Below are positions 10,573-47,219 of a stretch of 64,000 nt of DNA, in pieces. The position numbers were made by a program, and so were the translations under genes. How positions within the stretch are numbered: position 1 is the stretch's first letter; each line of letters begins with the position of its first letter. The stretch comes from a virus (taxonomy: Duplodnaviria > Heunggongvirae > Uroviricota > Caudoviricetes). The stretch is from the IMG/VR virus record IMGVR_UViG_3300029982_000015; one strand, given 5' to 3'. The notes below the pieces were generated by a model that was given only the letters and a program-made list of their open reading frames with translations, was not told where the DNA came from and did not search any database.

Positions 10573-10574
10573 GC

Positions 10575-11056: not shown

Positions 11057-11062
11057 GTGGGT

Positions 11063-11452
11063 ATGGGCAAGAAGGCCAAGACGAAGTTCCCCACTAAGGC
11101 GCAGTTGAATGCGCTGAATATCCACAACGGCCACAACCTCGCTGACCTCACCAAAGACAAGCTATTCATAAGCTTCACCCCAGCCAGTACAGGCCGAGGC
11201 GGTCGGTCGGCTCACTTCCGCGTCTCCCACATCGGGTACCAGTCCGACCCCACTGCCCATTTTTTGGATTATGGATGTAAAACATTCACGGTGTGGGGTG
11301 GTAAGGCTGGTCGGGAGAAAGTTTTGGTCGATGTCATCGCATGGACAAACGCAAAGTATGGTGAACGGGAGTGGGTGAAAGACCCCTTCGGCTCCTATCA
11401 GGATGCACAGGTGATTGCCCTTGCTTGGGAGAAAGTGGAGGCGGCAAAGTGA
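11063..11452 (+). CDS. hypothetical protein
   Basis: ATG 11063 (MGKKAKTKF) placed by promoter geometry; the track start at 11057 is GTG. Confidence 0.5.
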   Translation: MGKKAKTKFPTKAQLNALNIHNGHNLADLTKDKLFISFTPASTGRGGRSAHFRVSHIGYQSDPTAHFLDYGCKTFTVWGGKAGREKVLVDVIAWTNAKYGEREWVKDPFGSYQDAQVIALAWEKVEAAK

Positions 11453-12264
11453 TTAAGGCCGAGTTACTAACCGAGACGAATGAACTCCACTTCCAGCGTA
11501 TGTTGTTGTCGGCGACCTATGGCTTTCAAGAGAAGCATAACGGCCATCGGCTGATTATCTGCAAGCAGGATGGGCAACTCCGCATGTTCAATCGTGAAGG
11601 CGATCCCTCCAGCAAGGCTCTCCACCCCCGCATCAAGACTGCCCTTCTATCACACCGGCTCAGCATGTTTGTAATCGACGGTGAATTGGTCGGCGGAACC
11701 TTCTATATCTTTGACGCTCTGGTGCTCGGGGATGAAGCTATCAACAACGACGCATATGAGTATCGCGAAGCTCGGTACCACGCTGAATTCGACAATATCT
11801 CAAGTCAAATCAGTGTAGTCCCGACCGCACGGACGGCGGAAGAGAAGCGGCTCCTGTGGGACGCAGTGCTGGCATCGCGTGGCGAGGGCATCGTCTCCAA
11901 GAACATGACCGTAAAATATACCCAAGGCATGGCGGGGGCTCACTGGAAGCTGAAATTTTTGAAGTCGGCAGAAGCTGTGGTTATAGGCCCTAGTCCAGAG
12001 GGAAAAGACAGCGTTGAGATTGGCATGTGGGACTCAAACGGTAGAATGCACCGCATCTCCGGCCTCTCGCTCCGCAATAAATACCGGGTCGCACCCGGCA
12101 CTGTTTTGGAGGTTCGTTTCCTTTATGCTACGAAAGAACTTCACATCGTTCAGCCGGTACTTGTTCGTGTACGCACCGATAAACGCGCTGCGGACTGTAA
12201 GTTAACCCAACTTGTCCCTTACATCAACAAAAATTGGGTAAAAAGCGAACTATCCCATGTTTAA
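11449..12264 (+). CDS. minimal ATP-dependent DNA ligase
   Basis: Motif I EKHNGHR (KxNGxR), motif III FVIDGELV, motif IV EGIVSK, motif V WKLK; GTG start overlaps the upstream stop (GTGA); ATG 11501 is an alternative. Confidence 0.7.
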   Translation: MIKAELLTETNELHFQRMLLSATYGFQEKHNGHRLIICKQDGQLRMFNREGDPSSKALHPRIKTALLSHRLSMFVIDGELVGGTFYIFDALVLGDEAINNDAYEYREARYHAEFDNISSQISVVPTARTAEEKRLLWDAVLASRGEGIVSKNMTVKYTQGMAGAHWKLKFLKSAEAVVIGPSPEGKDSVEIGMWDSNGRMHRISGLSLRNKYRVAPGTVLEVRFLYATKELHIVQPVLVRVRTDKRAADCKLTQLVPYINKNWVKSELSHV

Positions 12265-12308
12265 GCCAATTTCACCTTCACTCCGGCCAACCCGAAAGGA
12301 CTGAGAGC

Positions 12309-12497
12309 ATGACACCTTTGTTCAAGGGGGTTATCGCGGTGTTGACGTTCTTCATCGCCTCTGTCTTTTTGTTTATCGCGTGGCTCAACCTTGCCATCGC
12401 TAACACATTCGGTGGAGGCCACCTTCTTTTCGCTGCTCTCCTGCTGATTGCTGTATTGCTCATCGTGCGGGGTGTGAAGATTATCAGGACAATATGA
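12309..12497 (+). CDS. small membrane protein
   Basis: Two TM helices (VIAVLTFFIASVFLFIAWL; LLFAALLLIAVLLIV). Confidence 0.4.
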   Translation: MTPLFKGVIAVLTFFIASVFLFIAWLNLAIANTFGGGHLLFAALLLIAVLLIVRGVKIIRTI

Positions 12498-12748
12498 AAA
12501 TTGAAATCACCATGCAACTAGAACTGCCGCCCTCCGAGTGCGACAACTTCTCCGACGCTGAGATGCGGCAGATGCTGTTCGACAGCATCCAGAACCGGCT
12601 CACGGTGGGTTACTTACAGGCCGCGTGTCATGCTTTCGTGGACAAGAACTTCTCCTCGGAAGAACAACGAACTGCAACACTCTACGTTTACAACACGTGG
12701 GCGGACATCATGAAGTCCGCAACGTGGGATTGGAAAAAGGTGGACTAA
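12494..12748 (+). CDS. hypothetical protein
   Basis: ORF with ATGA overlap at the upstream stop. Confidence 0.4.
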   Translation: MKIEITMQLELPPSECDNFSDAEMRQMLFDSIQNRLTVGYLQAACHAFVDKNFSSEEQRTATLYVYNTWADIMKSATWDWKKVD

Positions 12749-28153: not shown

Positions 28154-28184
28154 CTAACCAAAACCAACAAGAGCGAGGTATACT
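28154..28184 (+). promoter_or_regulatory. reiterated phage promoter; leaderless
   Basis: CTAACCAAAACC...GAGGTATACT; ATG 28191 is 6 nt after the box. Confidence 0.55.
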
Positions 28185-28190
28185 ACGAGT

Positions 28191-29696
28191 ATGGCTACTG
28201 CAACGGATGTGAGGATACTCGAAGCTAAGATGTTTGTCGCGGTGAATACCGCCGACAACAACAACAAATTTTGGAAGTATGAGCGCCTGTCTGCCCCCGT
28301 CACCGAGACCAACAACAAGAACAACTCCGAGACAGGTGACACTCGCATCACATGGGGTCGCGTAGGTGCGGCCAAGCCTGACCAGCAACTTATCATGTGG
28401 GATGTGACCACCATCGCTGGCAAGGTAGCCGACAAGACCGATACCAACAAAAAGGAAGTCATTAGCCGCCTCTCTTCGGGGCAAGGTCTGGACGGGCTGT
28501 CTCGCAAGGGCAAGCGTGACGACTACTACACTGAAGTTAAGACCATCGGTAACTCCACTCAGTCGTCACCGACGACCGCCATCCAAGTGGGACAGAAGCT
28601 GGCGAACGACCAAGTCCGCAAGCTGGCCGTCGCTGAGATTGCCGGTGGGTGCCAAATCACCGCCGCTCTCGTGAAAAAGCTGGCCGAAACCAACCGACAT
28701 GAACTCGTCGCTGCCACGTCCAAGGACAACAAGGGCGTAGACGGTGGTGGCATGGACATTGACCTTGAGACCGGCATGGTGAAGACCCCCCTCGGCGTGC
28801 TCACGCTCGATGCCATCAAGGAAGGTCGTGTGATTCTTGACCGGATGCTTCCCTTTGTCCAGCGTGCCGACACCGACTCCAAGTCATACATTACCTTGTT
28901 CGACCAATACCTTCGCAACATCCCCCAGTTCATCGGGTACAAGCGTGGGGCGCATGTAGACTTCATCAACATCGCCGCTCAGAACTCACTGCTTGACCAG
29001 TTGGAGACTTCGGTTGACCTTGCATTGCAACGCATGAAGGACGCTGAGGAAGCTGCCAAGGCACCGGGCACAAAGGCACCTGAAGCTGTCAAGCAGCAAA
29101 GCTTCTTCGAGTGCAAGCTACGGCTGCTGGATGAGGCCATTGAGAAGGCCATTTGGGAGCGCATCAGGAAGTCCTTCTTCGCGACCGTGAACTACGGCCA
29201 CACGTCTTCCAGTCTCAAGCCGGTGCGGATGTACGAAGTTACCATCCCGCACATGGTTCAAGCGTTCGATGCAGACGGTAAGAAGGTTGGTAACGTGCGT
29301 GAACTGTGGCACGGTACCCGCGTGTTCAACATCCTGTCTATCCTCAAGCGCGGCTTTGTCCTGCCGGGGGCGTTAACTTCCGCTCAGATTTGCGGTGCCA
29401 TGTTCGACAACGGCGTATACTTCTCAGACCAGTCCACCAAGAGCCTGAACTACTCACAGGGCTATTGGGACGGCGGCAGCAAGGACAACAACTGCTACAT
29501 GTTCCGTGCGGATGTTGCCATGGGTAAGCCTTACATCCCGACCGGACCTGATAACCGTGCAGCATCCTACTGCAAGAGGAATGGATTTGACTCCTGCCAC
29601 GCAGTCGCCAATCGCTCAGGTGTTCGCAACGACGAGCAGATTGTCTACCGCACGTCGCAGACCAACATCCGCTACCTCATCGAGTTCAACAAGTAA
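28191..29696 (+). CDS. poly(ADP-ribose) polymerase (WGR domain + PARP catalytic domain)
   Basis: WGR motif KFWKYE...TWGRVG. Catalytic LWHGTRVFNILSILKRGF (= PARP1 LWHGSRTTNFAGILSQGL), GVYFSDQSTKSLNYSQG (= GIYFADMVSKSANY), YMFRADVAMGKPY, and RNDEQIVYRTSQTNIRYLIEF (= [20 protein letters not shown]). H, Y and E triad residues are all present. Confidence 0.85.
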   Translation: MATATDVRILEAKMFVAVNTADNNNKFWKYERLSAPVTETNNKNNSETGDTRITWGRVGAAKPDQQLIMWDVTTIAGKVADKTDTNKKEVISRLSSGQGLDGLSRKGKRDDYYTEVKTIGNSTQSSPTTAIQVGQKLANDQVRKLAVAEIAGGCQITAALVKKLAETNRHELVAATSKDNKGVDGGGMDIDLETGMVKTPLGVLTLDAIKEGRVILDRMLPFVQRADTDSKSYITLFDQYLRNIPQFIGYKRGAHVDFINIAAQNSLLDQLETSVDLALQRMKDAEEAAKAPGTKAPEAVKQQSFFECKLRLLDEAIEKAIWERIRKSFFATVNYGHTSSSLKPVRMYEVTIPHMVQAFDADGKKVGNVRELWHGTRVFNILSILKRGFVLPGALTSAQICGAMFDNGVYFSDQSTKSLNYSQGYWDGGSKDNNCYMFRADVAMGKPYIPTGPDNRAASYCKRNGFDSCHAVANRSGVRNDEQIVYRTSQTNIRYLIEFNK

Positions 29697-33307: not shown

Positions 33308-33334
33308 CCAAAACACCTACACTCCCGGTATACT
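33304..33334 (+). promoter_or_regulatory. reiterated phage promoter; leaderless
   Basis: CTAGCCAAAAC...CCGGTATACT; ATG 33341 is 6 nt after the box. Confidence 0.55.
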
Positions 33335-33340
33335 AGAGAC

Positions 33341-34615
33341 ATGGACATGAGAGAAGCCGCTGAATTCGTGTTGAACACCCTCCGCAAGGCAGGATTTGAA
33401 GCCTACTTTGCTGGTGGTTGTGTTCGTGACTTTGTGATGGGACGGACTCCTAAGGATTTTGATATCACAACCAATGCCCGTCCAGAGCAGGTCACTCCCC
33501 TGTTTGATAAGACCATACCAGTCGGTGCTGCATTCGGCGTCGTGGTGGTGATGGTGGGAGGGTTTCAGTTTGAGGTCGCCACCTATCGTGCTGACGGTGC
33601 CTACAGCGATGGCCGTCGCCCCGATGAGGTTACCTACAGCAATTCCGCCGAGGAAGATGTAAAGCGGCGGGACTTCACCATGAACGGGCTCCTGATAGCC
33701 AATCCGTTTGATGCCCTCATGACCGATTACAGTCTCGGCGTCCTCGACTACGTGGGCGGCAGGGATGACATCGAAAACCGGGTCATCCGGTGTATCGGCA
33801 ATGCCGACACGCGCTTCAAAGAAGATGCATTGCGGATGTTGCGTGCGGTTCGCTTCGTTGGTCAGTTAGGCTTCGAGATAGAGGCGGAAACCTTCAAGGC
33901 CCTACAGGCGAACGTGGACAGCATAGTCAACGTCTCCCGCGAACGTGTTGCGGAGGAGTTGAAGAAGCTGACCACATCCAAGTTCGCTGCCAGAGGGTTG
34001 GCGGCGTTGGCGTCTACTGGTTTGCTGCGTCGTCTGCTGCCTGACGGTGTTTCCGATACGCGCTTCGCCTTTACACTGGAGCGGTTCGCTATGTTCCAAA
34101 CAACCGACCCCGTGATGGGTCTGGCGATGTTGCTGGCTGATACTCAGACCAACGAGATGGCAGCGTTGACCTGCGACAGCTTCAAGCTGTCTACGGATGA
34201 ACGTGACGCCATCTTGGGTGCGGTTAGAAATCAGGAAGCCATAGGTTCAATTGGCTCTCCGGCTGGTACCAAGCTGTTGGCTCGTGAGAAGGGTGTACTG
34301 CCGTATGCAGTAGACCTGTTCGAGCAGAACATAGGTTTGGGCTTTGCAAACGGTGTAGAGGCAGGGATGGATGCAGTACTGCGGTACAGGGCATTAACGC
34401 CGGAAGACATACGCCCATCACCGTTTGTCTCTGGCCGGGATTTGATAGAGATGGGATTCACGCCGGGGCCGATGTTCACCACGGTTTTAAGGGCGGTGGA
34501 GTTCGGTCAATTAAACGGCACATTGACCACCCGCGAACAGGCACTCGGCTTCGCTAAGTTCGAATCCGGGGTGCAGGAAACAGCAGCCTTCGTCAAGAGC
34601 GAAGCGGAAAGGTAA
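33341..34615 (+). CDS. cca: tRNA nucleotidyltransferase (CCA-adding enzyme), class II
   Basis: YFAGGCVRDFVMGRTPKDFDITT (GGxVRD...DxD) and EEDVKRRDFTMNGLL (RRDFTIN) head-domain motifs. Confidence 0.85.
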   Translation: MDMREAAEFVLNTLRKAGFEAYFAGGCVRDFVMGRTPKDFDITTNARPEQVTPLFDKTIPVGAAFGVVVVMVGGFQFEVATYRADGAYSDGRRPDEVTYSNSAEEDVKRRDFTMNGLLIANPFDALMTDYSLGVLDYVGGRDDIENRVIRCIGNADTRFKEDALRMLRAVRFVGQLGFEIEAETFKALQANVDSIVNVSRERVAEELKKLTTSKFAARGLAALASTGLLRRLLPDGVSDTRFAFTLERFAMFQTTDPVMGLAMLLADTQTNEMAALTCDSFKLSTDERDAILGAVRNQEAIGSIGSPAGTKLLAREKGVLPYAVDLFEQNIGLGFANGVEAGMDAVLRYRALTPEDIRPSPFVSGRDLIEMGFTPGPMFTTVLRAVEFGQLNGTLTTREQALGFAKFESGVQETAAFVKSEAER

Positions 34616-36488: not shown

Positions 36489-36673
36489 TTCTCGAAGGAC
36501 GCGATTTGAGGCAACTCCTCACGGGTGGGGTTGTCGTGAAGCTGGAGGGCAGCACAAAGGTTCGTATTACCCTTGCCGACATTGGCTACATGCAAATTGG
36601 TAGCATCGTTGCCAACGCACTAGGACTGGAACTGAAAGCGAAGGAGCGTCTTGATGAGATTAGTCTCCGATGA
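36470..36673 (+). CDS. hypothetical protein
   Basis: 67-aa ORF. Confidence 0.35.
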   Translation: MAEARVVLEGRDLRQLLTGGVVVKLEGSTKVRITLADIGYMQIGSIVANALGLELKAKERLDEISLR

Positions 36674-36823
36674 AGTAAGAGACCTGCGGCAACTGATTGA
36701 GAACTGCCTGACCGTTCTGCGTACGCTACGTGATGACCCAGCTATCACCAGTGGTAAAGTCAAACTCAACCCTGACGTTGTTAGTTTCGTCAACTCCGCC
36801 GAGAAAGCGTACAAGCTGATTCG

Positions 36824-37267
36824 ATGAGCGACAAGCTGGTGATTTTGTACCAAAAAATGGCCGACTTGACCGCCCCGGAGTGTGCCGGTGTGGGCGAAGG
36901 TTCCTGTCGTGTGCCTCACTCCTGCTGCGATCAGATGTCCTGTGACATCACTAAAAGCATTGCGAAGGACGTATGGGGTGTCACTGACCTTCCAGAGTAC
37001 CCTCCAACGAATCACCGAGGGGCCTACTACCTCGATGGCGACAAAGGCTGCACGGTCGCGCCACACCTTCGTCCGCATTGTGCTATGCACACATGCGCCG
37101 TGAACGGGCTTGGCTTCAAGCACGCTAATGGCGTCATCGACAAGAAGTGGACTCGTGACTACTTCAAGCTTCGGGGCAAGATTGAACGACTTGAGGCTGA
37201 GGTTCATCCGATTGGGCAATTGCTCTTGCTCGAAAAGAGGCTTAACGTGTTTGAGGACGAAAAATAA
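36824..37267 (+). CDS. Cys-rich protein
   Basis: CAGVGEGSCRVPHSCCDQMSCD...HCAMHTC. Confidence 0.45.
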   Translation: MSDKLVILYQKMADLTAPECAGVGEGSCRVPHSCCDQMSCDITKSIAKDVWGVTDLPEYPPTNHRGAYYLDGDKGCTVAPHLRPHCAMHTCAVNGLGFKHANGVIDKKWTRDYFKLRGKIERLEAEVHPIGQLLLLEKRLNVFEDEK

Positions 37268-37280
37268 TTACTAAAATCTA

Positions 37281-37310
37281 CAGCCAAACTCCAGCGAGTT
37301 CAGGTACTAT
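37281..37310 (+). promoter_or_regulatory. reiterated phage promoter (variant -10 TACTAT); leaderless
   Basis: CAGCCAAAC...CAGGTACTAT; ATG 37317 is 6 nt after the box. Confidence 0.45.
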
Positions 37311-37316
37311 AACGTA

Positions 37317-40300
37317 ATGGCATCGACTATTGTACGAATTGATAACCAAGTTTTGGTTCGCGACAAGGGTGAGGGTGAAATACTCCCGGTGGGAGCCCAA
37401 ATTGGAAATTGGTTTGTCAAGGGGGATATTGAGTACACCTACGAAATCCCCACACAAACCCGACTTTGTTTTTGTGGAAGGTGTAAGGGGCTTAACTGGC
37501 ATCATCCTCCGGGTTCAACTTTGATTGAATGCGGTAGCGGATTCAATCCGGCGTTAGCTCCTGACTTAATACAGGATGGCAAAGCCCGATATGAAATGGG
37601 GGCACGAACGGAGGAGGATTGCCTTCGTTTGTGGGATGAGAAAAAAGTAATCGCTGGAGCACTGCGTAACCCGAGTATTGAACACCCCGAGTGGGGCAAC
37701 CGCTTCAACAGGTACAACAAATGGGGGCAGTATCTTGGAATTCCCGACTACATCACAACCGATGAGTTGTTGAATCTCCTCCATTCAAACTACATCGAAG
37801 AGCGGCTGGCGTGGACTCGGGAAGCTACGCACGCAGCAACAGTTGAAATACGTTCAGCTTTTCAAAATCTTTTGCTGGCTGTCATTGGCGACTACGGTGG
37901 TTGCTTGGATGCATGTGCGAAGAAACTGAACTTGTCGGTCGAAACTCTCATCCAACGTTTGTGCGACTGCAAGAACGACGATGAGCGGCGGCAACTACTA
38001 GAAACCCCTAAGGAGCCTGAGACCCCTAAGGTTAGCCCCCCCGATACATGCCCGAAACCTGAAGACATCCCCACGTCTATCAAAAAACTTGACAAATTGA
38101 TGCGGACGTACCCCAGTGGATACTATGGCACGGCTGCAAATATACCTGAGATGTTAATACAACAGATGAACCAGTTACTGTGGATGCATTTAGAATTCCA
38201 CGGTCTCGAACGCTTACAACAGTGCCTTGCTGAGTGCATGACTGATACTCGTAAGCAATTTACAACCCTCTTTGAACAGGTGAAACGTTACCGAACCGAG
38301 AATCGCAACTGGATGCAAGCGTATTGCGTTTATTGGTTCGCTCACAGCGGACATCTTCTTGGGTTCAATCTAAGCGAGGCCGGAGCCGGAAAAACCAGCA
38401 CCGTATATGCAATTGCGAAGGAGTTGGAACTAGAGAATGTTCTTATCCTCGGTACAAAATCTACGATTGATAACGATAACGATAACGACAGTCAATGGAA
38501 GCTGATGGCAAAGAGGGAGAACGAGCACAGGCAAAACATCTTCAACTGCCGTGACGTATTCGACCTCAAGAAGTTGGAATCAAAGCGGCGTAATTATGTG
38601 CTAGTAACTGAGTACACGGTGCAGAACAACCCCGACCTAATTGACCAGCTTTCCAAGATTCGCTGGGATATGATTGTCACTGATGAGCCCCAAGTATTCT
38701 CCGGCTCTAATGATGATATAGACAGTACCAAACGGCTGAATCATTACTGTCGTCTTATTAGTGCAGCAATACAACTTAACCCTCGGTGCTTGAGGTACCT
38801 CATGTCAGCCACCCCCATTCGGTGTGAGGCCGAAGAGCTTATTCGAGTATTGGAGATAGTCTCAGGTGATGAACTTAAGAACGCAACTGGCGAGGGTGTA
38901 TCCGGCCTTTTGAAGCTCCGCTTGTTTCTGTTCCGCAATGGATTTCGCTTCTACATCAATCCTAACCTTCTACCCATTGTGAAGCCGATAACTCTTGGTG
39001 TATACGAAGAGGTTGAACTCTTCGAAGACCCAGTTGTGAACTGCGTCATTATGGCTCAGTATCAATCGAACATCCTTTCCGAGGGTCGCACGATACTGGA
39101 CATGGAGGTTGAAATGCTGCCGAGGCAGTGTGAGATTATCGAATCCAATCCAGTGCTTAAAAAAGCGTTTGTAGAAGCTTCATGCCCCATTCTTTATACA
39201 CAGTTCACCGACACAAAAAGCAATCGAATTGTCTTTGTGCTGAAAGAATGGGCTGAGAAAATGAGACCGGGGTACCCAGTGTACATCTACACTGGGATGC
39301 ACAAGCAAGACAAGCTGCTCAAAATCATTAAGAGGCATAAAGGTAAATGTACCCTCATTGCCAGTGCCCCCCTATCGGTTGGTCTGGACGGTCTTCAGAA
39401 TCTTTCTGACACCATGTTTATCATGGGCTCTCCGTGGCATTACGCTAACTTCGAGCAACTTCATCGCCGTATACGCCGCATTGGCTCACCCTTCTTGAAT
39501 TCTGGTGTGGCGTGCATCGTAATGCTGGCGAAGGATGCTGAGTATCACGAAAATCGTTGGTCACGGCTGTGTCAGCGGCGGCGAAGCAGCTTGGTTGTTT
39601 TAGATGGAACCATTGTCCCTATTAACCCAAAACGTATCGAACAGGAGTACCTCAGGAACAAGGATAACATCTTGCGGTTATCTGGAGTGGAAGTGACCCC
39701 CGCTGCCACCGTTGTGGATATTACCACGCCACTCAAGCCTCGGAAGTACACCCCACCTAGAACAGTAATGATGGATGTTCATCGGCTGTATGCGAACTCT
39801 CACTCAGCCACACTGCCACCCAAACGGCAAGGTGACCTGCTTATCGCTACCACGGGTAGAACATATAATCTAGCTGAGTATCATGCTGCCAATGAACTCA
39901 CCAGCAAAGCGTACAAGCTTGTGTATGATACCTTTGTAGTGAAGAGCACCAACCTACGTATTCTAAGCTTGGGCTGCGGTACAACTGAACCTAAGTATGC
40001 ACAGGAACTTGGCCTCCAGAATGTAACTTTTGTGGACATGCTCTTGACAGAGGAAGCGTATATTGAGTACCCTCAAATTTTACGACTCGACCGAAATGCA
40101 ACAAAACTTCCTGATGGTTCGTTCGACCTTATTGTGTCTGTCCTTTCAATATTCCGGTTGGATTACGAACGCAGCATCCGAGAAATGGCACGGCTATTAG
40201 CTCCTAAAGGCCGTGCCATCATTATTGAATCCTACCAATCTGAGAAAGCTGGTGGTAAACTTTGGGTACGGGAGAATTTAACCAAAGCATTCAAACTCAA

Positions 40301-40373
40301 CGGTCTGAAATTCAAAGAACCAAAACAGATGCCTAACCGGCATCTCCTGTTTGAAATACGAAAGGGGAGGTAG
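37317..40373 (+). CDS. SNF2/DEAD-like superfamily-2 helicase fused to a C-terminal class I SAM-dependent methyltransferase
   Basis: Walker A SEAGAGKTST, Walker B MIVTDEPQ, motif VI EQLHRRIRRIGS. C-terminal ILSLGCGTTEP (MTase motif I), DGSFDLIVSV, LLAPKGRAII. ~330-aa N-terminal region unassigned. Confidence 0.65.
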   Translation: MASTIVRIDNQVLVRDKGEGEILPVGAQIGNWFVKGDIEYTYEIPTQTRLCFCGRCKGLNWHHPPGSTLIECGSGFNPALAPDLIQDGKARYEMGARTEEDCLRLWDEKKVIAGALRNPSIEHPEWGNRFNRYNKWGQYLGIPDYITTDELLNLLHSNYIEERLAWTREATHAATVEIRSAFQNLLLAVIGDYGGCLDACAKKLNLSVETLIQRLCDCKNDDERRQLLETPKEPETPKVSPPDTCPKPEDIPTSIKKLDKLMRTYPSGYYGTAANIPEMLIQQMNQLLWMHLEFHGLERLQQCLAECMTDTRKQFTTLFEQVKRYRTENRNWMQAYCVYWFAHSGHLLGFNLSEAGAGKTSTVYAIAKELELENVLILGTKSTIDNDNDNDSQWKLMAKRENEHRQNIFNCRDVFDLKKLESKRRNYVLVTEYTVQNNPDLIDQLSKIRWDMIVTDEPQVFSGSNDDIDSTKRLNHYCRLISAAIQLNPRCLRYLMSATPIRCEAEELIRVLEIVSGDELKNATGEGVSGLLKLRLFLFRNGFRFYINPNLLPIVKPITLGVYEEVELFEDPVVNCVIMAQYQSNILSEGRTILDMEVEMLPRQCEIIESNPVLKKAFVEASCPILYTQFTDTKSNRIVFVLKEWAEKMRPGYPVYIYTGMHKQDKLLKIIKRHKGKCTLIASAPLSVGLDGLQNLSDTMFIMGSPWHYANFEQLHRRIRRIGSPFLNSGVACIVMLAKDAEYHENRWSRLCQRRRSSLVVLDGTIVPINPKRIEQEYLRNKDNILRLSGVEVTPAATVVDITTPLKPRKYTPPRTVMMDVHRLYANSHSATLPPKRQGDLLIATTGRTYNLAEYHAANELTSKAYKLVYDTFVVKSTNLRILSLGCGTTEPKYAQELGLQNVTFVDMLLTEEAYIEYPQILRLDRNATKLPDGSFDLIVSVLSIFRLDYERSIREMARLLAPKGRAIIIESYQSEKAGGKLWVRENLTKAFKLNGLKFKEPKQMPNRHLLFEIRKGR

Positions 40374-40377
40374 TAAC

Positions 40378-40677
40378 ATGGCAAAGTTAAAACTGGAATT
40401 GCAGCGTGGTGGGGTACAGTCTCTTGTGACCCCGAAGGGAACCAAAGTATTGACTGGAGTGCCGCGAGTTGTGGCAACCAAATTTGGTACATACTTTGTG
40501 TTTGCGAAGACAAACGAACATGCGGAGAGCCTCATCAAGGTCGAGGGAACCGGACACCGCGTGTTCGAAGAGTATACGGTTGATGGCGTCACTGTGTATC
40601 GTCAGACCAAGGACACACCCAACGGCCAACTTAAGAAGGGTGAGTGGCATGTTGACGCGGATACTGTAACCTTGTAG
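40378..40677 (+). CDS. small hypothetical protein between the helicase and the dCas12-like gene
   Basis: ATG 40378 after a GGGGAGG SD; 99 aa. Confidence 0.45.
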   Translation: MAKLKLELQRGGVQSLVTPKGTKVLTGVPRVVATKFGTYFVFAKTNEHAESLIKVEGTGHRVFEEYTVDGVTVYRQTKDTPNGQLKKGEWHVDADTVTL

Positions 40678-40742
40678 AATTGTCTGAAGCGCCGATGATG
40701 GCTCGAACAAGATTCTGCACAAGATTCTAAAGAAGGGACTCT

Positions 40743-43313
40743 ATGAATTTCTCAGAAGTAAAAGCACACAGTATCGACGGGGTGTTCTACCTGACGATGA
40801 GCACCCACCCCGAACTTGCCAAGAAGGGCCGTCCTTTGGCACTCGTCAAATCTGGAAGTATGACGTTCTCCGACAATCAAGTAGCATTCAAGGGAGAGTC
40901 TTATCCCTTGGGGCTCACTCTCGCTGAGAACACCCCTTTAACCATCATTTTCACCAACCACAACAGCCGAGTGTTCAACATCGAACGCGGTGTGCAAACC
41001 AAGAAGCTTGAGAACGGTGACCTTTTCTTCCAAGGCGAGAACCGCAACCATGGTAACAAGACCAAGGAAGAAATAGCAGCCAAAGGGACCGGCTACCTCA
41101 CCCTCAAGAACCGGCTGTTCTACCATCATCGTGGTGTGGAGACCTCCGGTGCAGTTTTACCCAAGTGGGCCGCAGATAAGAAGACCAACTGGCGCTTGGT
41201 ATGGAATATTCTCGCCTTGTTACTCCAATGGACTTTGCAGAAGAGCGAGGATGTTGGAGACACAACAACAAACTGGACACCACACATCAAAAGTGTTGCC
41301 ATGCTTCTAACCGACGATAGGGAGGTGTCTGCATACCGTCGCACGACGTTGTCAGCCGAATCCACGGCCATCATCGAGCGCATCCGCAAAGTGATTGTGG
41401 ACTCCATGAACGCTCACTATGCTACTCGTGGACGCGAGGCTAAGTTACCTCTCCCGAAAAATCTTCGCGACAACGCCAAATACCCAGCCAACTTTTCTGA
41501 CCTTCGCTACTTCATATACCGCCTCGACAAGTATGAGAAGGAAGAAAAGGTTAAGGTTCTCGTTTGTGGGGTGGCTGAGAGCGACCCGGAGACCCTTCTC
41601 GCTAATTATCTGAAAACAGAACTGGGTAAATTGAAACGCCACAAAGAGCCCCTCAAAGCACTCAAGGCGCTTTTCACCAATATAGAGGAAACCAACTGGG
41701 CCGATGGCATGGGGGAGGTCTGGATGAATGGTGCAAAGCCATGGAGCGGTAACCTCTTCAATTACATCGGCAAGATGCTGGCTGTCCCCCCCGCAGAAAT
41801 GGGTGAAATATCCACTCGCTTTCAAGCTGTGTTGAAACAGCGTGAATCGAAGAATAGTCCTTACGACAAAGGCTGGCCGAAACACATCCGCATTGATGAG
41901 GACACATGGCAGGTCTCCTACGACGTACGTGGAAAGAAAACCCTCCGGGAAGTGCTGGATAACAAGGTTCCGCATATCCAGTTCACCGCCCCGCTGGATT
42001 CAATCAACACTGGAAAAGCATTTCGTCACACCGTAACGGCTGTTGGCGACGACTTTGTGGTCACACCTGAGTTCAAGCCTATGACACCGGGCTCCTGCGC
42101 TGCCAAGCGGTCATTGCACGGCGTTTCACTCACCGATGGCAAGGGCACCGACCCCTTCAAGTTGGCCGTCCTAGTTCACCGTGATGATGTTGACCTGAAC
42201 GCTAAGGTGAAAAAGGTCATTGTGTCCTTCAAGACAGAGAAGCGCAAAGTGGTTAAATACGCCGACCAAAATGGTCGAAACTCTGGTCTTGCGGCACCAG
42301 CGACCAAGCAGGTGCCCCAGTGCTACCTCAACTTCTGCCTTGCAGAAGTCAAGACTAACGAGAAGTACGATACGCGGGGCACCGGGTCGGCAAAGCTCAC
42401 CCTCGGATGGAAGCTGGCGAAAGACGACCAGTTGAAAATCGTTACCGAGTCTCTTCCGACCGGGCAGACAAACGACTACTACTTGCCTCTCGGCGAAGAG
42501 TGGAAGACCGAAGGACTCTTCGCTGAAGGATGTGACAGCACGAAGAAGGGCAACGTTTGGTCGCGCAAGTCGGGGTATACACTGGCATTCCGCACGTTAT
42601 ACGGATGGCCGGGTGAGGAAGCCATTAAAAATGCCCAGAAGGCAGAACTTCAGGCACACTTCCGCACAAATACTTTGACGTACAATTGGCTTAAGACTAC
42701 CCTCTTGTCACTACCGGAGCAGCTTGACCTTCTGCTCAACGCGGCCAAGGATGAGGGGTACAAGCTTATGACTGAGGAGCAGCGGAACATTGTTGACGCG
42801 GCAGGTTGGCGTATGGTTCGCCAGTCTGGCATGGTTCGTTACATCAACGAACTCCGCATTGGTGCCGGGACGCTAACTACAACCTACAACACTAACCCAA
42901 GTCGTCAGAGCGAGAAGTCCAAACCGCTCGGCTCTAACCCCGAACTCCTTCGTCTCTGGCTTCGCTGGCTTGAGTTCAACGACCGCCTTCGCACTGTAGA
43001 GCGTATGGTGCGTGAGAACCTGTTGGGACGCCGTAAAGCTTACTACTATGTTCTCGCACACCGCATCTGCGACCATGCGTCAACCATCTCTTACAAGAAA
43101 TTGAACCTCAAGGACGCTTCAGAGAAAGAGACCCGCGCCAAGAAGAAGGACAAGGGCGACAAAATGGCTTCCGATGCTTCGCAGAAGTACCGCTCGTGGG
43201 CATCACTGGCCGAATTTACAACCATCCTCAAGCACGTCGCATTCAAGCGTGGCGTGACGGTCGAGGAGGTTGTTGAAGCCCTTGTTGACAAAGCTCTGGC
43301 CGCGTCAGCTTAA
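40743..43313 (+). CDS. putative nuclease-dead Cas12/TnpB-derived CRISPR-associated protein (C-terminally truncated RuvC)
   Basis: 856 aa, immediately 5' of the CRISPR array. AKLTLGWKLAKDDQ aligns with TnpB RuvC-I vGIDLGLKTLAtlSDG, with the catalytic D replaced by T. TISYKKLNLKDAS aligns with RuvC-II vIAlEDLNVkGMt, with E-D replaced by K-K. MASDASQKYRSWASLAEFTTILKHVAFKRGVTVEEV aligns with TnpB iSDAGWGEFRRqLEYKAeWYGreVVVV. The protein ends before the TSQ/zinc-finger/RuvC-III segment; no CxxC pairs. Confidence 0.45.
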   Translation: MNFSEVKAHSIDGVFYLTMSTHPELAKKGRPLALVKSGSMTFSDNQVAFKGESYPLGLTLAENTPLTIIFTNHNSRVFNIERGVQTKKLENGDLFFQGENRNHGNKTKEEIAAKGTGYLTLKNRLFYHHRGVETSGAVLPKWAADKKTNWRLVWNILALLLQWTLQKSEDVGDTTTNWTPHIKSVAMLLTDDREVSAYRRTTLSAESTAIIERIRKVIVDSMNAHYATRGREAKLPLPKNLRDNAKYPANFSDLRYFIYRLDKYEKEEKVKVLVCGVAESDPETLLANYLKTELGKLKRHKEPLKALKALFTNIEETNWADGMGEVWMNGAKPWSGNLFNYIGKMLAVPPAEMGEISTRFQAVLKQRESKNSPYDKGWPKHIRIDEDTWQVSYDVRGKKTLREVLDNKVPHIQFTAPLDSINTGKAFRHTVTAVGDDFVVTPEFKPMTPGSCAAKRSLHGVSLTDGKGTDPFKLAVLVHRDDVDLNAKVKKVIVSFKTEKRKVVKYADQNGRNSGLAAPATKQVPQCYLNFCLAEVKTNEKYDTRGTGSAKLTLGWKLAKDDQLKIVTESLPTGQTNDYYLPLGEEWKTEGLFAEGCDSTKKGNVWSRKSGYTLAFRTLYGWPGEEAIKNAQKAELQAHFRTNTLTYNWLKTTLLSLPEQLDLLLNAAKDEGYKLMTEEQRNIVDAAGWRMVRQSGMVRYINELRIGAGTLTTTYNTNPSRQSEKSKPLGSNPELLRLWLRWLEFNDRLRTVERMVRENLLGRRKAYYYVLAHRICDHASTISYKKLNLKDASEKETRAKKKDKGDKMASDASQKYRSWASLAEFTTILKHVAFKRGVTVEEVVEALVDKALAASA

Positions 43314-43320
43314 AAACGAG

Positions 43321-43357
43321 AAACGCGAGAGGATAATCAATACTCTTCTCGCGTTTT
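43321..43357 (+). terminator. hairpin terminator after 40743..43313
   Basis: AAACGCGAGA / TCTCGCGTTT 10-bp stem, 16-nt loop, TTTT. Confidence 0.4.
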
Positions 43358-43364
43358 CCTGAGG

Positions 43365-43391
43365 TTCTAGTTAAGGCAATTGGTGTATAAT
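43365..43391 (+). promoter_or_regulatory. sigma70-like promoter upstream of the CRISPR array
   Basis: TATAAT at 43386-43391 with TG just upstream; candidate -35 TTCTAG; 20 nt before repeat 1. Confidence 0.35.
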
Positions 43392-43411
43392 CTATGGGTT
43401 GGGGCTATCCT

Positions 43412-44187
43412 CCTGTAGACTTACTGGATTTGAAGGCTGAATCCAACATAGCCGCCGATGCGTATATAGGTTCCTAACCTGTAGACTTACTGGATTTGAA
43501 GGCTGAATCCAACGGGAGAGCCCGAGGATAAAATCAATGGAGACCTGTAGACTTACTGGATTTGAAGGCTGAATCCAACAGAGATGATTGTTAATGAAAA
43601 GACATCAACCCTGTAGACTTACTGGATTTGAAGGCTGAATCCAACGTAACTTGGGTTGTGCCATAGGTGGCAACACCTGTAGACTTACTGGATTTGAAGG
43701 CTGAATCCAACCCAGCATACTGAGGGCCGTCATTGGTTCTCCCTGTAGACTTACTGGATTTGAAGGCTGAATCCAACTAGATCAGGTATTCGGAGTCTGA
43801 GTAAAGCCCTGTAGACTTACTGGATTTGAAGGCTGAATCCAACAGTCAGCTTTGGCACACCTGTAGATTTACTGGATTTGGAGGCTGAATCCAACGGAGG
43901 GATGTACCGTTGAACGTCGAAACCTGTATACTGGATTTGGAGGCTGAATCCAACATATTGCTGCACCGCTTACTGGATTTGAAGGCTGAATCCAACGAAG
44001 CTTGCCTTGGTACTGTCCCTGTAGACTTTACTGGATTTGAAGGCTAAATCCACCTACGGAACGCAGCCGTGATGTCTTTGGGTTGCCCGTATACCCACTG
44101 GATTTGAAGGCTGAATCCAACCCTGATGGCACTCACGTGTGGATGGCGGAACCTGTAGACTTACTGGATTTGAAGGCTGAATCCAAC
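43412..44187 (+). CRISPR. CRISPR array: 13 repeats, 36-bp consensus, 12 spacers
   Basis: Repeats 1-7 and 13 are perfect; 30-nt spacers at 66-bp period. Repeats 8-12 are decayed or truncated with 15-32-nt spacers. The repeat 3' half forms a 5-bp stem plus AAC before each spacer (type V-like handle). Confidence 0.9.
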
Positions 44188-44271
44188 TTCGCTACGCTCA
44201 CGGGAATTATGCTCTGCAAATGGGTTTGTGGAACGAGCCCATCAAGAAGGGACTAAAAAAATCCCAAAAAA

Positions 44272-44302
44272 CTATCCAAAACCTCGGAGTCTCCGATATA
44301 CT
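44272..44302 (+). promoter_or_regulatory. reiterated phage promoter; leaderless
   Basis: CTATCCAAAACC...CCGATATACT; ATG 44309 is 6 nt after the box. Confidence 0.55.
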
Positions 44303-44308
44303 ACATGT

Positions 44309-44722
44309 ATGAAGGAACTCCACATTACCTCATCGAAGATTGTGGTCTCGGCCAACAACCTGTGTAAGTCTGGGTACTCCGTCAGCCACAACGTGAAGGG
44401 TATCCTCCCCGGATGTCGTAAAGTTGCCATCCTTTTTGTTTCAACCAGCACAGGCTGTGTCTGGGTCAAAAATCTGTACAGCCACAACGGTGAGGCACAC
44501 ATCCATCCCGACCACTGGGCACAGCTTATCAAGGCCACGCCGGTCGTCTCCTCCACACTCAGGAACTTTGAGGTTACCCTGACCCCTGCGATTATCGCGG
44601 ATGCTTACAACTACGTTACGAGCATCACTGTTGAACCGGCCATCAGGAGCCAAGAGAAGTCCCCCAACTACATACCGAAGCTCGACCCTATGGTGGTCGT
44701 AGGAGATTCCAATGGCAAGTAA
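44309..44722 (+). CDS. hypothetical protein
   Basis: ATG 44309 (MKELHITSS...) chosen by promoter geometry; the track ORF 44228 begins upstream of the promoter. Confidence 0.45.
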   Translation: MKELHITSSKIVVSANNLCKSGYSVSHNVKGILPGCRKVAILFVSTSTGCVWVKNLYSHNGEAHIHPDHWAQLIKATPVVSSTLRNFEVTLTPAIIADAYNYVTSITVEPAIRSQEKSPNYIPKLDPMVVVGDSNGK

Positions 44723-44856
44723 GCGTCAAACAAAAAAGAAAGAGCCTGTGACCTACGAGGATTTTCTCGCTCACGAGTGGGAACAGTGGGGGTCGTCCCG
44801 CGCTCATGAACGTGTAAACATCCCTGAGCCGTCGTAAACCGTATGATGCCGGTCGA

Positions 44857-45432
44857 ATGCCGCGTCTTTGTTGGTGGACTGAGGCCAACCCTCTCGCACT
44901 CGAAAGCGACACAGCGTTCTCCCGGCCACGCCTCAACACCAACTACATCCAGACTTCGTTGGATAGCCTGATTCACATGGTGTACCACCGGGGTCTCATC
45001 GACAGCCCCGACTATCAGCGGGGCTATGTCTGGACTCTGGAAGACAAGCAGAAACTTATTCGGAGCATTTTCAACCGGGCTGACATTGGCAAGTTCGTTT
45101 TCCTTGAGGATGAGAACTACCGTGAGTATCGGCTGGAAGTCATCGACGGCAAGCAACGGCTTCGGGCTATCACGGAATTTTACGAGGGTCGCTTCGAGTT
45201 TGAAGGTAAGACGTGGTATCAGCTTTCACGGCGGGACAAATATGCGTTCTGCGACATCATGATTCAAGCGGCTACGCTACAACGTGGTAAAGTCAAGCGG
45301 TCGGATGTTCTCTGGCTGTTTCTCCAGTTGAACGCTGGCGGCGTCCCTCAGACCGAGGAGCACATCGCCTACGCTCGTAAGCTGTACGAGGCTGAAATTG
45401 CGAACGAGAAGGACATGGAAATAATTTCCTGA
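44857..45432 (+). CDS. DUF262 / ParB-like nuclease-domain protein
   Basis: YQRGYVWT...IGKFVF...VIDGKQRLRAI (the DGQQR motif of DUF262/GmrSD N-terminal domain). Confidence 0.55.
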   Translation: MPRLCWWTEANPLALESDTAFSRPRLNTNYIQTSLDSLIHMVYHRGLIDSPDYQRGYVWTLEDKQKLIRSIFNRADIGKFVFLEDENYREYRLEVIDGKQRLRAITEFYEGRFEFEGKTWYQLSRRDKYAFCDIMIQAATLQRGKVKRSDVLWLFLQLNAGGVPQTEEHIAYARKLYEAEIANEKDMEIIS

Positions 45433-45437
45433 AATAG

Positions 45438-45468
45438 TATCCAAAACGTTGGTGTCTCCGATATACTA
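45438..45468 (+). promoter_or_regulatory. reiterated phage promoter
   Basis: GTATCCAAAAC...CCGATATACT. Confidence 0.55.
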
Positions 45469-45487
45469 ATCATGTGGAGGAAACACC

Positions 45488-45736
45488 ATGAACGAGTTGA
45501 AAGCCCGGAAAGTCGCAAACGAGAGGTTAGCTGCAATGCCGACCTACCACCCGTTCATCCCCATTGAAGACATCGACAGCATCCTGACCGCCGCAGGTTT
45601 CAACGGAATGGAACCCGCCATCTTCTGCGGTCGCGAAGGTCGCAGCAATGAGCCGGTTGGTGAGAAGACTTGGCTGAGCATGACTTGGTACAAGATGCCC
45701 TCCGGTAACTACGAAATCGTCGCTTACGTTAGCTAG
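45488..45736 (+). CDS. hypothetical protein
   Basis: GGAGG SD. Confidence 0.5.
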   Translation: MNELKARKVANERLAAMPTYHPFIPIEDIDSILTAAGFNGMEPAIFCGREGRSNEPVGEKTWLSMTWYKMPSGNYEIVAYVS

Positions 45737-45752
45737 GAAAGGACACAGGATT

Positions 45753-46199
45753 ATGGGTCGGTTCTATGAAACACACGAAGACCGTCTTGAGGCTGAACTG
45801 AAGTATGAAATCTCTGTCCGTGACCTAGTTCCGGCGGGGCACTGGTGGTTCGCAGGATGGACAAACTGGTTCGACGCCCCACCTCCGGCCAATGTCGAGG
45901 TCGAGTACATGTATACCGATGGACGCCGGTTTGGTATCAAAGTGTTTGAAGACCCGGCGAACACATGGTACTCCCCAGTTGCCTCTTGGTGGTGGCGTAT
46001 CCCGCCTATCGGCCTGTACTACAACCCTGACAACATGCCGCTGAAAACCTTCGTGCTGGTACGTGCCGACCTCGGACCACACTTCGCTACCGAGATGTGG
46101 GAACAGGCTCGCCGTCGCATGGAATGGGCACCGACTCCACTGCCCTACAACTCCGCTCTGGCTCGTATTCAACGTGGAGAACTGGTGCCGTTGCAATGA
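45753..46199 (+). CDS. Trp-rich hypothetical protein
   Basis: 148-aa ORF. Confidence 0.45.
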   Translation: MGRFYETHEDRLEAELKYEISVRDLVPAGHWWFAGWTNWFDAPPPANVEVEYMYTDGRRFGIKVFEDPANTWYSPVASWWWRIPPIGLYYNPDNMPLKTFVLVRADLGPHFATEMWEQARRRMEWAPTPLPYNSALARIQRGELVPLQ

Positions 46200-46229
46200 G
46201 GTTGCTTAACACCTTTAAGTTGAGACAAG

Positions 46230-46427
46230 ATGATTCGGAACATGGTTAACTTCCCTTTCCCTCAAGTCTGTGTCCACAATGTGGCCGGGAGTTTACTATC
46301 CATGCTGGAAGAGTACGGGGGCACCGATAATCTACCTCCTGAGGAACTGAAAGCGTTAGCCAGAGCCATCGTTAGGGCTGAGGACGATGAGTCGTATCGA
46401 ATACTCACAGCCATCATTGGAGAATAA
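46230..46427 (+). CDS. hypothetical protein
   Basis: 65-aa ORF. Confidence 0.35.
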   Translation: MIRNMVNFPFPQVCVHNVAGSLLSMLEEYGGTDNLPPEELKALARAIVRAEDDESYRILTAIIGE

Positions 46428-46428
46428 C

Positions 46429-46605
46429 ATGCCAAATTCCTTTAGTCAGCGTCTCGAACTCGCCAAGAACATTCCAGCCAAGGTGCAGGAATTTCTGCAC
46501 TCTTTGAACCGTCGCGAAGCCAGTGAACTATGGGATTGGCTGGACGCTGCCGGTACCGATGGTGGCCGTCTTCTCCAACATTTTGTCGAAAGGAAAATTA
46601 TCTGA
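46429..46605 (+). CDS. small hypothetical protein
   Basis: ATG 46429 immediately after the upstream stop. Confidence 0.35.
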   Translation: MPNSFSQRLELAKNIPAKVQEFLHSLNRREASELWDWLDAAGTDGGRLLQHFVERKII

Positions 46606-46849
46606 TGCTGACATCGCACATGCAGATGTACGGTATGCGGCAATGAGGAGCTTTGTAAGCAGGAGTCTTGCGAAAGCCGCCCGGTCGCTTGGTTTTCATG
46701 GGCCGACAAGGCCCGGTGTAAGGCCCATGAAATACAAACTGAACCACCCGTCTGGCTGGATGTCTGGGAATTGCCAGAGAAACATCCACACTTCATGCAC
46801 TAGCTTGGCATGTGAATGTGACTGCCATGGAAAAATTATTCCGAAAAAA

Positions 46850-46880
46850 GTAGCCAAAAAACCTACGAGTTCGGTATACT
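46850..46880 (+). promoter_or_regulatory. reiterated phage promoter; leaderless
   Basis: GTAGCCAAAAAACC...TCGGTATACT; ATG 46887 is 6 nt after the box. Confidence 0.55.
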
Positions 46881-46886
46881 AAGGTC

Positions 46887-47219
46887 ATGGCAAAGATAAC
46901 GGTACGTCCGGTAGGAGTTCGCAACGCAGATGTCGCCCACTGTGCAATCTGTGGTAGCAAGCGGTCAGCCGGATTTGGTACTTGCATCAACTTCTGCCAC
47001 TGGCTGTTGCCGGGGTGGATGGGCTGGAACGCCGTCCTCAAAGAAGTCGCCGTGAAGGACAATCGCGCTTTACCATTGGCCGCGATGCACAAGTGGGATG
47101 CTGAGAAGAGGCGCATTAAGGCTCCTTCCTTCCCGAAGCTGGTTGCCGCTGCTCGTTCGTTGGGCTGGGACGGTGACACCAACGCACCATCACAGCCGGT
47201 GTTTGTGGAGGCCGCATGA
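46887..47219 (+). CDS. Cys-containing hypothetical protein
   Basis: CAICGS...CINFCHW. Confidence 0.45.
   Translation: MAKITVRPVGVRNADVAHCAICGSKRSAGFGTCINFCHWLLPGWMGWNAVLKEVAVKDNRALPLAAMHKWDAEKRRIKAPSFPKLVAAARSLGWDGDTNAPSQPVFVEAA

Follow-up and report, generated by a model that had tools for sequence, protein, structure and literature searches.

The window analyzed here is a 64,000-nucleotide (nt) stretch of phage DNA (IMG/VR record IMGVR_UViG_3300029982_000015; Caudoviricetes). It carries a gene for a nuclease-dead relative of Cas12 next to an array of short palindromic repeats, clustered and regularly interspaced (CRISPR). Directly upstream of this effector gene, and in the same orientation, lie a gene for a fused helicase–methyltransferase and a small open reading frame (ORF). 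From sequence comparison we conclude that the triad forms a conserved module accessory to a nuclease-dead type V system. The favored reading, held with moderate confidence, is that the helicase–methyltransferase and the 99-amino-acid (aa) product of the small ORF are dedicated accessory partners of a phage-borne, nuclease-dead system related to Cas12m. The pairing suggests a so far undescribed action of an RNA-guided DNA binder on its target without cutting.

Conserved Linkage of the Three Genes

The helicase–methyltransferase ORF occupies positions 37317-40373 of the plus strand and encodes a protein of 1018 aa (116.7 kDa) composed of an N-terminal orphan domain, an SNF2-like ATPase, and a class I S-adenosylmethionine (SAM) methyltransferase. 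It is followed on the same strand by the small ORF at 40378-40677, which is 99 aa long when counted from its ATG and 108 aa long from an alternative TTG start at 40351, and then by the 856-aa nuclease-dead Cas12 (dCas12), kin of Cas12m (V-U1), at 40743-43313. The ORF listing agrees with the positions and the common orientation given in a first-pass annotation of this DNA, as does the 4-nt gap between the helicase stop codon and the ATG of the small ORF. The gap between the small ORF and the dCas12 gene, reported there as 66 nt, measures 65 nt.

The same annotation had suggested that these genes work together, an idea that would lose its basis if they were unlinked in related phages. Co-occurrence in relatives speaks for linkage, as the triad is contiguous in three of three lineages of the dead-effector clade. 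The order helicase–methyltransferase, small ORF, dCas12 is the same in all of them, and a repeat or an array then follows. The effector P0081 is found on six contigs, each with a helicase–methyltransferase (1050 aa, cut by the contig end on one of them) and the small ORF upstream, and with a large irregular array containing the same 3′ repeat half wherever the contig continues past the gene. On one of these contigs, L001, identity to the window proteins is 55% for the helicase–methyltransferase, 72% for the small protein, and 53% for dCas12. The third lineage, contig L011, is far more distant. Its effector, P0084, is 23% identical to the window dCas12 and is the only other relative without the RuvC-I aspartate; it is preceded by a 1062-aa orthologue of the helicase–methyltransferase (26% over the full length, E 1e-76) and a 95-aa orthologue of the small protein (37%, E 4e-22). 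The flanks of the locus are not collinear between lineages, and genes found 3′ of the array in the window (44297-47219) sit on the upstream side of the L001 operon, where one of them has the opposite orientation, whereas the triad block itself stays collinear between the two.

A related helicase occurs in a second gene order. On the 61.5-kilobase (kb) phage-like contig L034 (JGI 3300056830, Ga0558099_0001604), positions 7001-12700 are arranged as cas12, helicase, array: a 795-aa Cas12 with an intact RuvC (P0091) is followed by an 844-aa helicase and by 10 repeats of GTCGAAATAGTGATCAGTTTCCCGGGTAGGGAAAAC. This helicase is homologous to residues 64-777 of the window protein (E 1e-28), covering the N-terminal region and the ATPase but no methyltransferase, and it is the top match of both the window and the L011 proteins beyond their own clade. 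The methyltransferase was either gained in the dead clade or lost in L034.

The Nuclease-Dead Cas12 Effector

The 856-aa protein has no sequence match in Pfam, PHROG, or the PDB. Among the PADLOC models, Cas12u1 (1.3e-5) and Cas12f (5.4e-5) align with residues 742-844, over profile positions ~387-487 of 532-533, a stretch that does not reach the zinc finger or RuvC-III. When 1.84 billion representatives were searched exhaustively with HMMER, the one close relative returned was P0081 (53% identity), along with a piece of the window protein. Matches ranking next, with E values of 1e-14 to 1e-4, include 700-860-aa proteins that carry a Cas12f1-like TNB domain and match the Cas12u1 or Cas12f models. 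Altogether, three dead-Cas12 lineages only (53% and 23% identity to the window) were found in ~15 billion proteins. A further large search with a 12-sequence Cas12 alignment recovered only P0081; scans of IMG/VR with the dCas12 alignment, P0084, the small ORF, P0091, and P0099 yielded no relatives, and scans of JGI metagenomes and GTDB genomes with P0084 yielded nothing.

A profile of the effector family matches Cas12m structures, with 23vw_A at E 5.7e-42 and UnCas12m4a and Cas12m2 also among them. The RuvC-I motif AGxDIGWR has become AKLTLGWK in the window protein, in which T replaces the aspartate (K in P0081), and the RuvC-II motif LNxE has become KLNLK, with the glutamate replaced by K. 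The C-terminus falls where the CxxC zinc finger/TNB and the third aspartate (RuvC-III) of the relatives start. Because all three RuvC catalytic positions are lost, the label "dCas12-like" assigned at first pass is correct, and by sequence the protein is a Cas12m-related type V effector, adjoining a CRISPR array, that has lost its RuvC triad. Even so, three lineages with identity as low as 23% all keep the ORF intact (844-860 aa), and many positions are invariant. Cas12m silences through binding without cleavage, and its processing of precursor CRISPR RNA (pre-crRNA) is independent of RuvC (PMC11013384).

Domains of the Helicase–Methyltransferase

The N-terminal domain (37317-38306, plus strand; aa 1-330) belongs to no known family, and annotation of these 330 residues with hidden Markov models gave no Pfam match in any of the three orthologues. 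It contains an invariant CxCxxC motif (C51, C53, C56) and one degenerate INT_rpt-like unit (HPEW..YNKWGQYLG); the cysteines as well as W126, W136, and G141 are invariant across the three orthologues. The superfamily 2 (SF2) ATPase core of SNF2 type follows at 38307-39596 (plus strand; aa ~331-760), with Walker A at G356-T360 (GAGKT from residue 356), DEPQ at 456-459, SAT at 497-499, and motif VI, QLHRRIRRIG, from residue 714 (Q714/R718/R721/G723). The class I SAM methyltransferase forms the C-terminus (39894-40370, plus strand; aa ~860-1018), with motif I LGCG at 885-888 and the residues D907, D925, E956, R959, and E971. All helicase and methyltransferase motifs named at first pass were located in the protein by regular expression.

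In alignments of 41-43 family sequences, the ATPase residues G356, G358, K359, T360, D456, E457, A498, T499, Q714, R718, and R721 and the SAM-binding residues G886, C887, D907, D925, E956, R959, and E971 are invariant, and the three orthologues likewise show no variation in their ATPase and SAM motifs. These catalytic motifs look functional. Pfam profiles applied to the window protein alone are less decisive: ResIII and Helicase_C remain below the cutoff, SNF2-rel_dom does not reach its gathering score (E 0.045; 13.3 bits, where 24.9 is required), and Methyltransf_8 is also below (E 1.3e-3, 19 bits against 27), while Methyltransf_11 is above its cutoff at E 2e-7. PHROG_62, "DNA helicase", matches the protein at 2e-15. 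A large-scale database search retrieved 80 relatives with 22-28% identity; the majority combine ResIII, Helicase_C, and Methyltransf_8 and often carry N-terminal INT_rpt repeats. The domain assignments, weak in Pfam on the single sequence, are thus solid when homologues are included.

An AlphaFold2 model of the 1018-aa protein, built on 41 sequences, is of moderate quality. Its mean predicted local distance difference test (pLDDT) score is 57, with values below 50 over residues 1-196 and mostly ~55-88 in the ATPase lobes and the methyltransferase. When the model was compared with the PDB using Foldseek, the best 50 matches were all SNF2-family proteins (ISW1, Chd1, Mot1, INO80, CSB; E 1.9e-12 to 1.4e-9), and the best matches in BFVD were phage SNF2/HepA helicases and a few helicase–methyltransferase fusions. 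In this model the ATPase fold is SNF2-like. Neither Cas3 nor DinG is matched by the protein in PADLOC or Pfam, and its likeness to Cas3 and CasDinG is functional only. Membership in two PADLOC families, "mad2" (E 1e-5) and "BrxHI" (3e-3), was rejected, as the matches span generic methyltransferase and helicase stretches.

At the C-terminus, the alternation of strands and helices in the model is consistent with a Rossmann fold, and on sequence criteria the domain is a class I SAM methyltransferase. The subfamily, a question raised at first pass, was also addressed. Neither the (D/N/S)PP(Y/F/W) form of motif IV nor the C5-type PC...ENV motifs are present in any of the three orthologues. Consequently, the domain is not recognizable by its motifs as a DNA methyltransferase. 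The profile of the broad family matches human RRP8 (2zfu) at E 2.4e-52, and the PF05148 match in the L001 orthologue carries no weak flag. A profile of the three orthologues, which represent the Cas-linked subfamily, matches generic class I methyltransferases only, and 2zfu is not matched. Such generic matches speak neither for nor against an unrelated small-molecule methyltransferase, which the first-pass annotation had named as a refutation. Rrp8 is a methyltransferase that forms N1-methyladenosine in ribosomal RNA. The window domain is probably derived from an Rrp8-like RNA methyltransferase.

The Small Protein

The 99-aa protein (10.9 kDa) is basic, with an isoelectric point of 9.3, contains no cysteine, and is predicted to be all-beta. 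Conservation is higher for this protein than for the other two: over the true 99 aa it shares 72% identity with its L001 counterpart, and it shares 37-40% with that of L011. Searches of Pfam, PHROG, PADLOC, NCBIfam, and the PDB gave no reproducible match, so that it stands as an orphan family, and a single-sequence AlphaFold2 model (pLDDT 44) is unusable. Two candidate identities were rejected. A Pfam match to DUF7352 (E 0.0047) is not reproduced by the orthologues and was discarded for that reason. A split-off TNB or RuvC-III piece of the effector was also considered; profile comparison shows the protein to be unrelated to Cas12 proteins and thus not a detached fragment of this kind, and it is also free of cysteine. 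In L001, the helicase–methyltransferase ORF extends 104 nt into the small ORF in a different frame (9648-9751), because of which gene callers shortened the small ORF to 68-76 aa; its true start there is the ATG at 9648, with AAGGAG in front.

Transcription Layout

Promoters of one type recur in this phage. Their consensus consists of an A/T tract, CCAAA, N14, the −10 element GGTATACTA, N5, and ATG. The full spaced pattern, with at most 2 mismatches in the −10 element, has 12 matches on the plus strand of the window between positions 1 and 47000; on both strands, 14 matches were observed against 1.7 in shuffled sequences. Copies of the −10 element with a CTAA/CAAA-type box number ~14. Examples on the plus strand are found at 1734-1766, 28158-28190, 33308-33340, and 46854-46886. 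The start codon mostly lies 5 nt past the −10 element, a spacing which implies that many early messenger RNAs (mRNAs) of the phage would be leaderless.

A variant of this promoter precedes the helicase gene at 37260-37316 (plus strand), with an A/T tract at 37260-37279, CCAAA at 37284-37288, N14, the −10-like element GGTACTATA at 37303-37311, N5, and ATG. This copy preserves tract and box as well as the exact 14- and 5-nt spacings, and its −10 element deviates at three of nine positions. Since 5 nt separate the −10 element from the ATG, the helicase mRNA is probably leaderless. The first-pass annotation had placed a leaderless, reiterated promoter of the helicase's own at 37281-37310. As a variant copy of the promoter family it stands; as a feature of the helicase it is confined to the window lineage, since the nearest phage promoter in the L001 lineage lies one small gene further upstream.

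The phage promoter motif does not recur between the three genes, and strong terminators are absent there; the only hits are weak consensus matches at chance level. The small ORF and the dCas12 gene each have their own Shine–Dalgarno sequence. An intrinsic-terminator-like hairpin at 43320-43357 (plus strand), 7 nt past the dCas12 stop codon, has a 14-bp stem, a 10-nt loop, and a UUUU end (ΔG −19.5 kcal/mol, z −3.3). Hairpins of other sequence with a T-run occupy the equivalent position in L001 and L011. A putative array promoter, a perfect TATAAT at 43386-43391 (plus strand), lies 20 nt before the first repeat, and the corresponding −10-like hexamer is TGCTATAAT in L001 and a weaker TAATAT in L011. 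Beyond the array, a further copy of the reiterated promoter (44276-44311, plus strand; the copy itself at 44276-44303) reads CCAAA, N14, GATATACTA, N5, and ATG at 44309, and marks the start of the next transcription unit. Given the dCas12 terminator and the TATAAT of the array, it is likely that the three proteins share one mRNA and that the array is transcribed separately. The earlier proposal of a single module comprising the three genes and the array therefore holds for the linkage of the triad, but the array, with the terminator before it and its own TATAAT, does not simply share the transcript of these genes. A scan of positions 36500-45000 against Rfam gave no match.

The CRISPR Array

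The array begins 98 nt after the dCas12 gene and extends from 43412 to 44187 on the plus strand. It consists of 13 copies of the 36-nt repeat CCTGTAGACTTACTGGATTTGAAGGCTGAATCCAAC, which has a 3′ hairpin as in type V repeats. Eight spacers are 30-31 nt long, and four short ones (~6-23 nt) lie amid degenerate repeats (43844-44030), in the irregular part of the array at 43844-44097. The 3′ half of the repeat is kept in L001 and L002 and in L011, where the contig ends inside the first repeat, CCTGTAGTCTTAGTGGATTTGTAGGTTGAA. L001 and L002 have a large irregular array of ~37 units (L001 12635-14950), in which many spacers are truncated or repeats lack the 5′ half. No adaptation genes are found within ~3 kb on either side of the locus.

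Cas-proximal spacers differ between L001 and L003 on the one hand and L002 on the other, and the near-identical strain L007 is short of one unit. The difference in spacer content among the L001, L002, and L003 contigs argues, at the level of sequence, that the arrays are in use. Among 185,579 species genomes the repeat core gave single, chance-level matches only; therefore, no host array with the window repeat was found. In JGI metagenomes the repeat core revealed no new lineage: arrays appeared only in contigs of the L003 source sample, and other matches were single.

The 5′ half of every repeat (43412-43423 for the first one of the window) resembles the phage −10 element GGTATACTA; its sequence is TGTAGACTTA (window), TTATACCTA (L001), or TGTAGTCTTA (L011). 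Some degenerate units, such as CTGTATACTG at 43918-43930 of the window, are closer still. In two L001 units, at 13241 and 14267, the 5′ half of the repeat is swapped for GGTATAATA, which looks like an internal promoter placed directly 5′ of the repeat hairpin. The likeness between the repeat 5′ half and the −10 element could be due to chance or to promoters embedded in the repeats.

Proposed Action and Alternative Explanations

For the favored reading, that of dedicated accessory partners, we infer as follows the co-transcription of the genes, any physical contact among their products, the direction in which these act, the substrate of methylation, and the role of the small protein. The three proteins would be produced from one early phage transcript, running from the promoter at 37284-37311 to the terminator at 43320-43357, while the array would be transcribed from its own TATAAT promoter. 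Loaded with CRISPR RNA (crRNA), dCas12 would bind complementary DNA without cutting it. The SNF2-like ATPase would then be brought to the bound site, or act on it, using ATP to translocate on duplex DNA and so displacing polymerases or other proteins or spreading the block. An SNF2-like motor would suggest action on duplex DNA or DNA-bound proteins rather than Cas3-like shredding. The C-terminal methyltransferase would modify the nucleic acid exposed at the bound site, and its target may be the target DNA, RNA at the site, or the crRNA. The small basic protein would serve as an adaptor or regulator.

Several observations weigh against this reading. The RuvC-intact effectors P0083 and P0086, whose context is readable, have neither helicase nor small-ORF neighbors; an SNF2-like gene 5 kb upstream of P0083 in L012 shows no detectable homology to the window helicase. 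The helicase in L034 has GIGKAR at Walker A in place of GxGKT. No spacer matches the window or related loci, and a search of IMG/VR for exact matches to the first two found none. Support comes from three lineages plus one, all of them metagenomic contigs of related phages.

The main rival is inherited synteny without functional coupling: the genes would be neighbors by descent only, the helicase–methyltransferase being a stand-alone early protein, such as a remodeler or RNA modifier in host takeover, and the small ORF another early gene. This is considered unlikely. The broad helicase–methyltransferase family is mostly solitary, with no nearby cas genes in the other contexts read, which include a phage-like contig, the vicinity of BREX, and the chromosomes of Methylopumilus and Phormidium. 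L011 shares PARP and PolyA_pol genes upstream with the window, so that inherited synteny explains part of the linkage, and promoter-like motifs precede both the small ORF and the dCas12 gene in L011. In L007 (ENA ERZ27248709), the helicase–methyltransferase carries a nonsense codon at R650 (AGA to TGA, window 39264), which means that the protein is dispensable, at least transiently; non-essentiality for short-term propagation is as expected of an accessory or conflict function. The strain otherwise differs by a single-nucleotide polymorphism at 40715, in the gap between the small ORF and dCas12, and by the deletion of one repeat–spacer unit (43896-43954). What speaks for coupling is that the block is intact in L001 although its flanks are shuffled, that linkage is kept down to 23-37% protein identity, and that in L034 a related helicase stands between cas12 and the array in a different gene order. 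The tight spacing in the window, with neither a promoter motif copy nor a strong terminator between the genes, also counts against descent alone.

A more specific form of the partnership would be natural RNA-guided methylation, in which dCas12 opens an R-loop at a site chosen by the crRNA, the SNF2-like motor engages the target, and the methyltransferase marks exposed bases of the displaced DNA strand or of nascent RNA. An Rrp8-like product could then be an N1-adenine mark on the Watson–Crick face, blocking replication or transcription. Such a scheme has to be regarded as quite improbable. If true, it would amount to interference by chemical marking instead of cleavage, directed at competitors or the host, and to a natural counterpart of engineered dCas–methyltransferase epigenome editors.

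Alternatively, the module may serve the guide RNA or the ribonucleoprotein itself. The methyltransferase would methylate crRNA or pre-crRNA, or the ATPase would help to load or recycle dCas12 or would strip it from DNA, a function that would be of use because a nuclease-less binder otherwise turns over very slowly. The affinity of the methyltransferase family to RRP8 and the absence of DNA-methyltransferase motifs fit this explanation, as does the fact that SNF2 enzymes such as Mot1, one of the top fold matches, strip tightly bound proteins from DNA; moreover, pre-crRNA processing by Cas12m is described as RuvC-independent and unresolved (PMC11013384). SNF2-type motors, however, work on duplex DNA and not on RNA, and since the L034 helicase has no methyltransferase, methylation cannot be the core shared function. 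A role of the module in serving the guide RNA or the ribonucleoprotein is very doubtful. That the locus is a decaying CRISPR remnant, with a functionless dead effector and eroding array and with irrelevant upstream genes, is hardly credible: the loss of all three RuvC positions, the degenerate repeats and truncated spacers, and the L007 nonsense variant are outweighed by an effector ORF that stays intact in lineages as little as 23% identical, by spacer content that varies between strains, and by the terminator (of different sequence in each lineage) and −10-like hexamer retained around the array.

Phage Setting

The window is phage DNA, and its first ORF is an rIIB homologue (PHROG_609, E 3e-66). 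In a megablast search of GenBank phages the locus had no match, and no near-identical phage was found. Unusual cargo genes are present at 1767-2738, 4721-7276, 23988-25235, 28191-29696, and 33341-34615, and encode Ku, an 851-aa vault-like protein with major-vault-protein shoulder and repeat domains, a ClpB-like AAA+ protein, a protein with a PARP catalytic domain, and a CCA-adding/polyA polymerase. An HNH–RNA ligase gene is likewise found in the window. A separate gene at 25692-26900 (plus strand), in a position unconnected to the dCas12 locus, encodes a 402-aa TnpB/Cas12f-like protein (Cas12f1-like_TNB 3.8e-9 and OrfB_IS605; PADLOC Cas12f 1.2e-13). Just 3′ of the array, at 44857-45432 (plus strand), lies the gene for a short protein with DUF262/GmrSD_N only (PADLOC NsnA 1.1e-18). 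Its L001 counterpart is located upstream of the operon in inverted orientation (2995-3834, minus strand).

Significance and Comparison with Known Systems

The system is an example of how CRISPR may serve a phage in the absence of a nuclease. Should methylation be targeted, it would at once attract interest as a programmable writer of natural origin, and its compact, defined parts make the idea directly testable in a heterologous host. Even if the partners merely enhance a plain roadblock, two results stand: a helicase subfamily that recurs in cas12 loci in two gene orders, and a new, very rare Cas12 clade.

The closest known system is type V-M (formerly V-U1) with Cas12m. Both are single-effector type V systems with a 3′ repeat hairpin and without adaptation genes nearby, and they are joined by the profile match. 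The window effector is ~250 aa longer than Cas12m, has lost the RuvC positions and the zinc finger/TNB, and is encoded by a phage; it also has two conserved partner genes, which are undescribed for V-M.

A second group of systems shares the logic of combining a nuclease-less RNA-guided binder with an SF2 motor that acts after target recognition. It comprises Cascade–Cas3, Csf–DinG of type IV-A, and Cas12m–Cas3, hybrid loci of the last kind having been reported (Altae-Tran et al. 2023, PMC10910872). In contrast to Cas3 (DExH plus HD) and DinG (XPD-like), the window motor is SNF2-like and has a methyltransferase instead of any recognizable nuclease domain. A phage-encoded, RuvC-dead type II-C Cas9 associated with an SNF2 helicase has also been reported (Altae-Tran et al. 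2023, PMC10910872). It retains an active HNH, has no array, and was proposed to act as an anti-CRISPR that hijacks host crRNAs (PMC10910872). What it shares with the window system is a phage-encoded, RuvC-inactivated effector linked to an SNF2-family helicase; in the window, however, a Cas12 with a variable array of its own takes the place of Cas9, and the helicase is fused to a methyltransferase.

The fusion protein itself has two kinds of relatives. The stand-alone helicase-related/methyltransferase family has the same architecture and invariant residues, and with 19-23% identity the window protein counts among its divergent members. Proteins of that family, which are uncharacterized, have 3-4 N-terminal INT_rpt repeats, a clearly Rrp8-like methyltransferase, and no cas link, whereas the Cas-linked subfamily is set apart by an N-terminal CxCxxC domain of its own and by greater divergence of the methyltransferase. 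SNF2–DNA methyltransferase fusions of phages and giant viruses (DarB-like and Eco57I-like) likewise join an SF2/SNF2 motor to a SAM methyltransferase, and full-length fold matches in BFVD include the Hokovirus protein A0A1V0SG34 (E 5.6e-14) and an "Eco57I methylase" phage protein. Those fusions are annotated as adenine-specific DNA methyltransferases, a class that carries an NPPY-type motif, and lie outside CRISPR loci, whereas the window protein has no such motif.

Known outputs of nuclease-dead CRISPR effectors are silencing through binding (Cas12m, Cas12c), the guidance of transposition (Cas12k), and recruitment of a helicase–nuclease (type I, type IV). A dead Cas12 working with an SNF2–methyltransferase and an orphan protein would add a further output to RNA-guided recognition, namely remodeling, methylation, or both.

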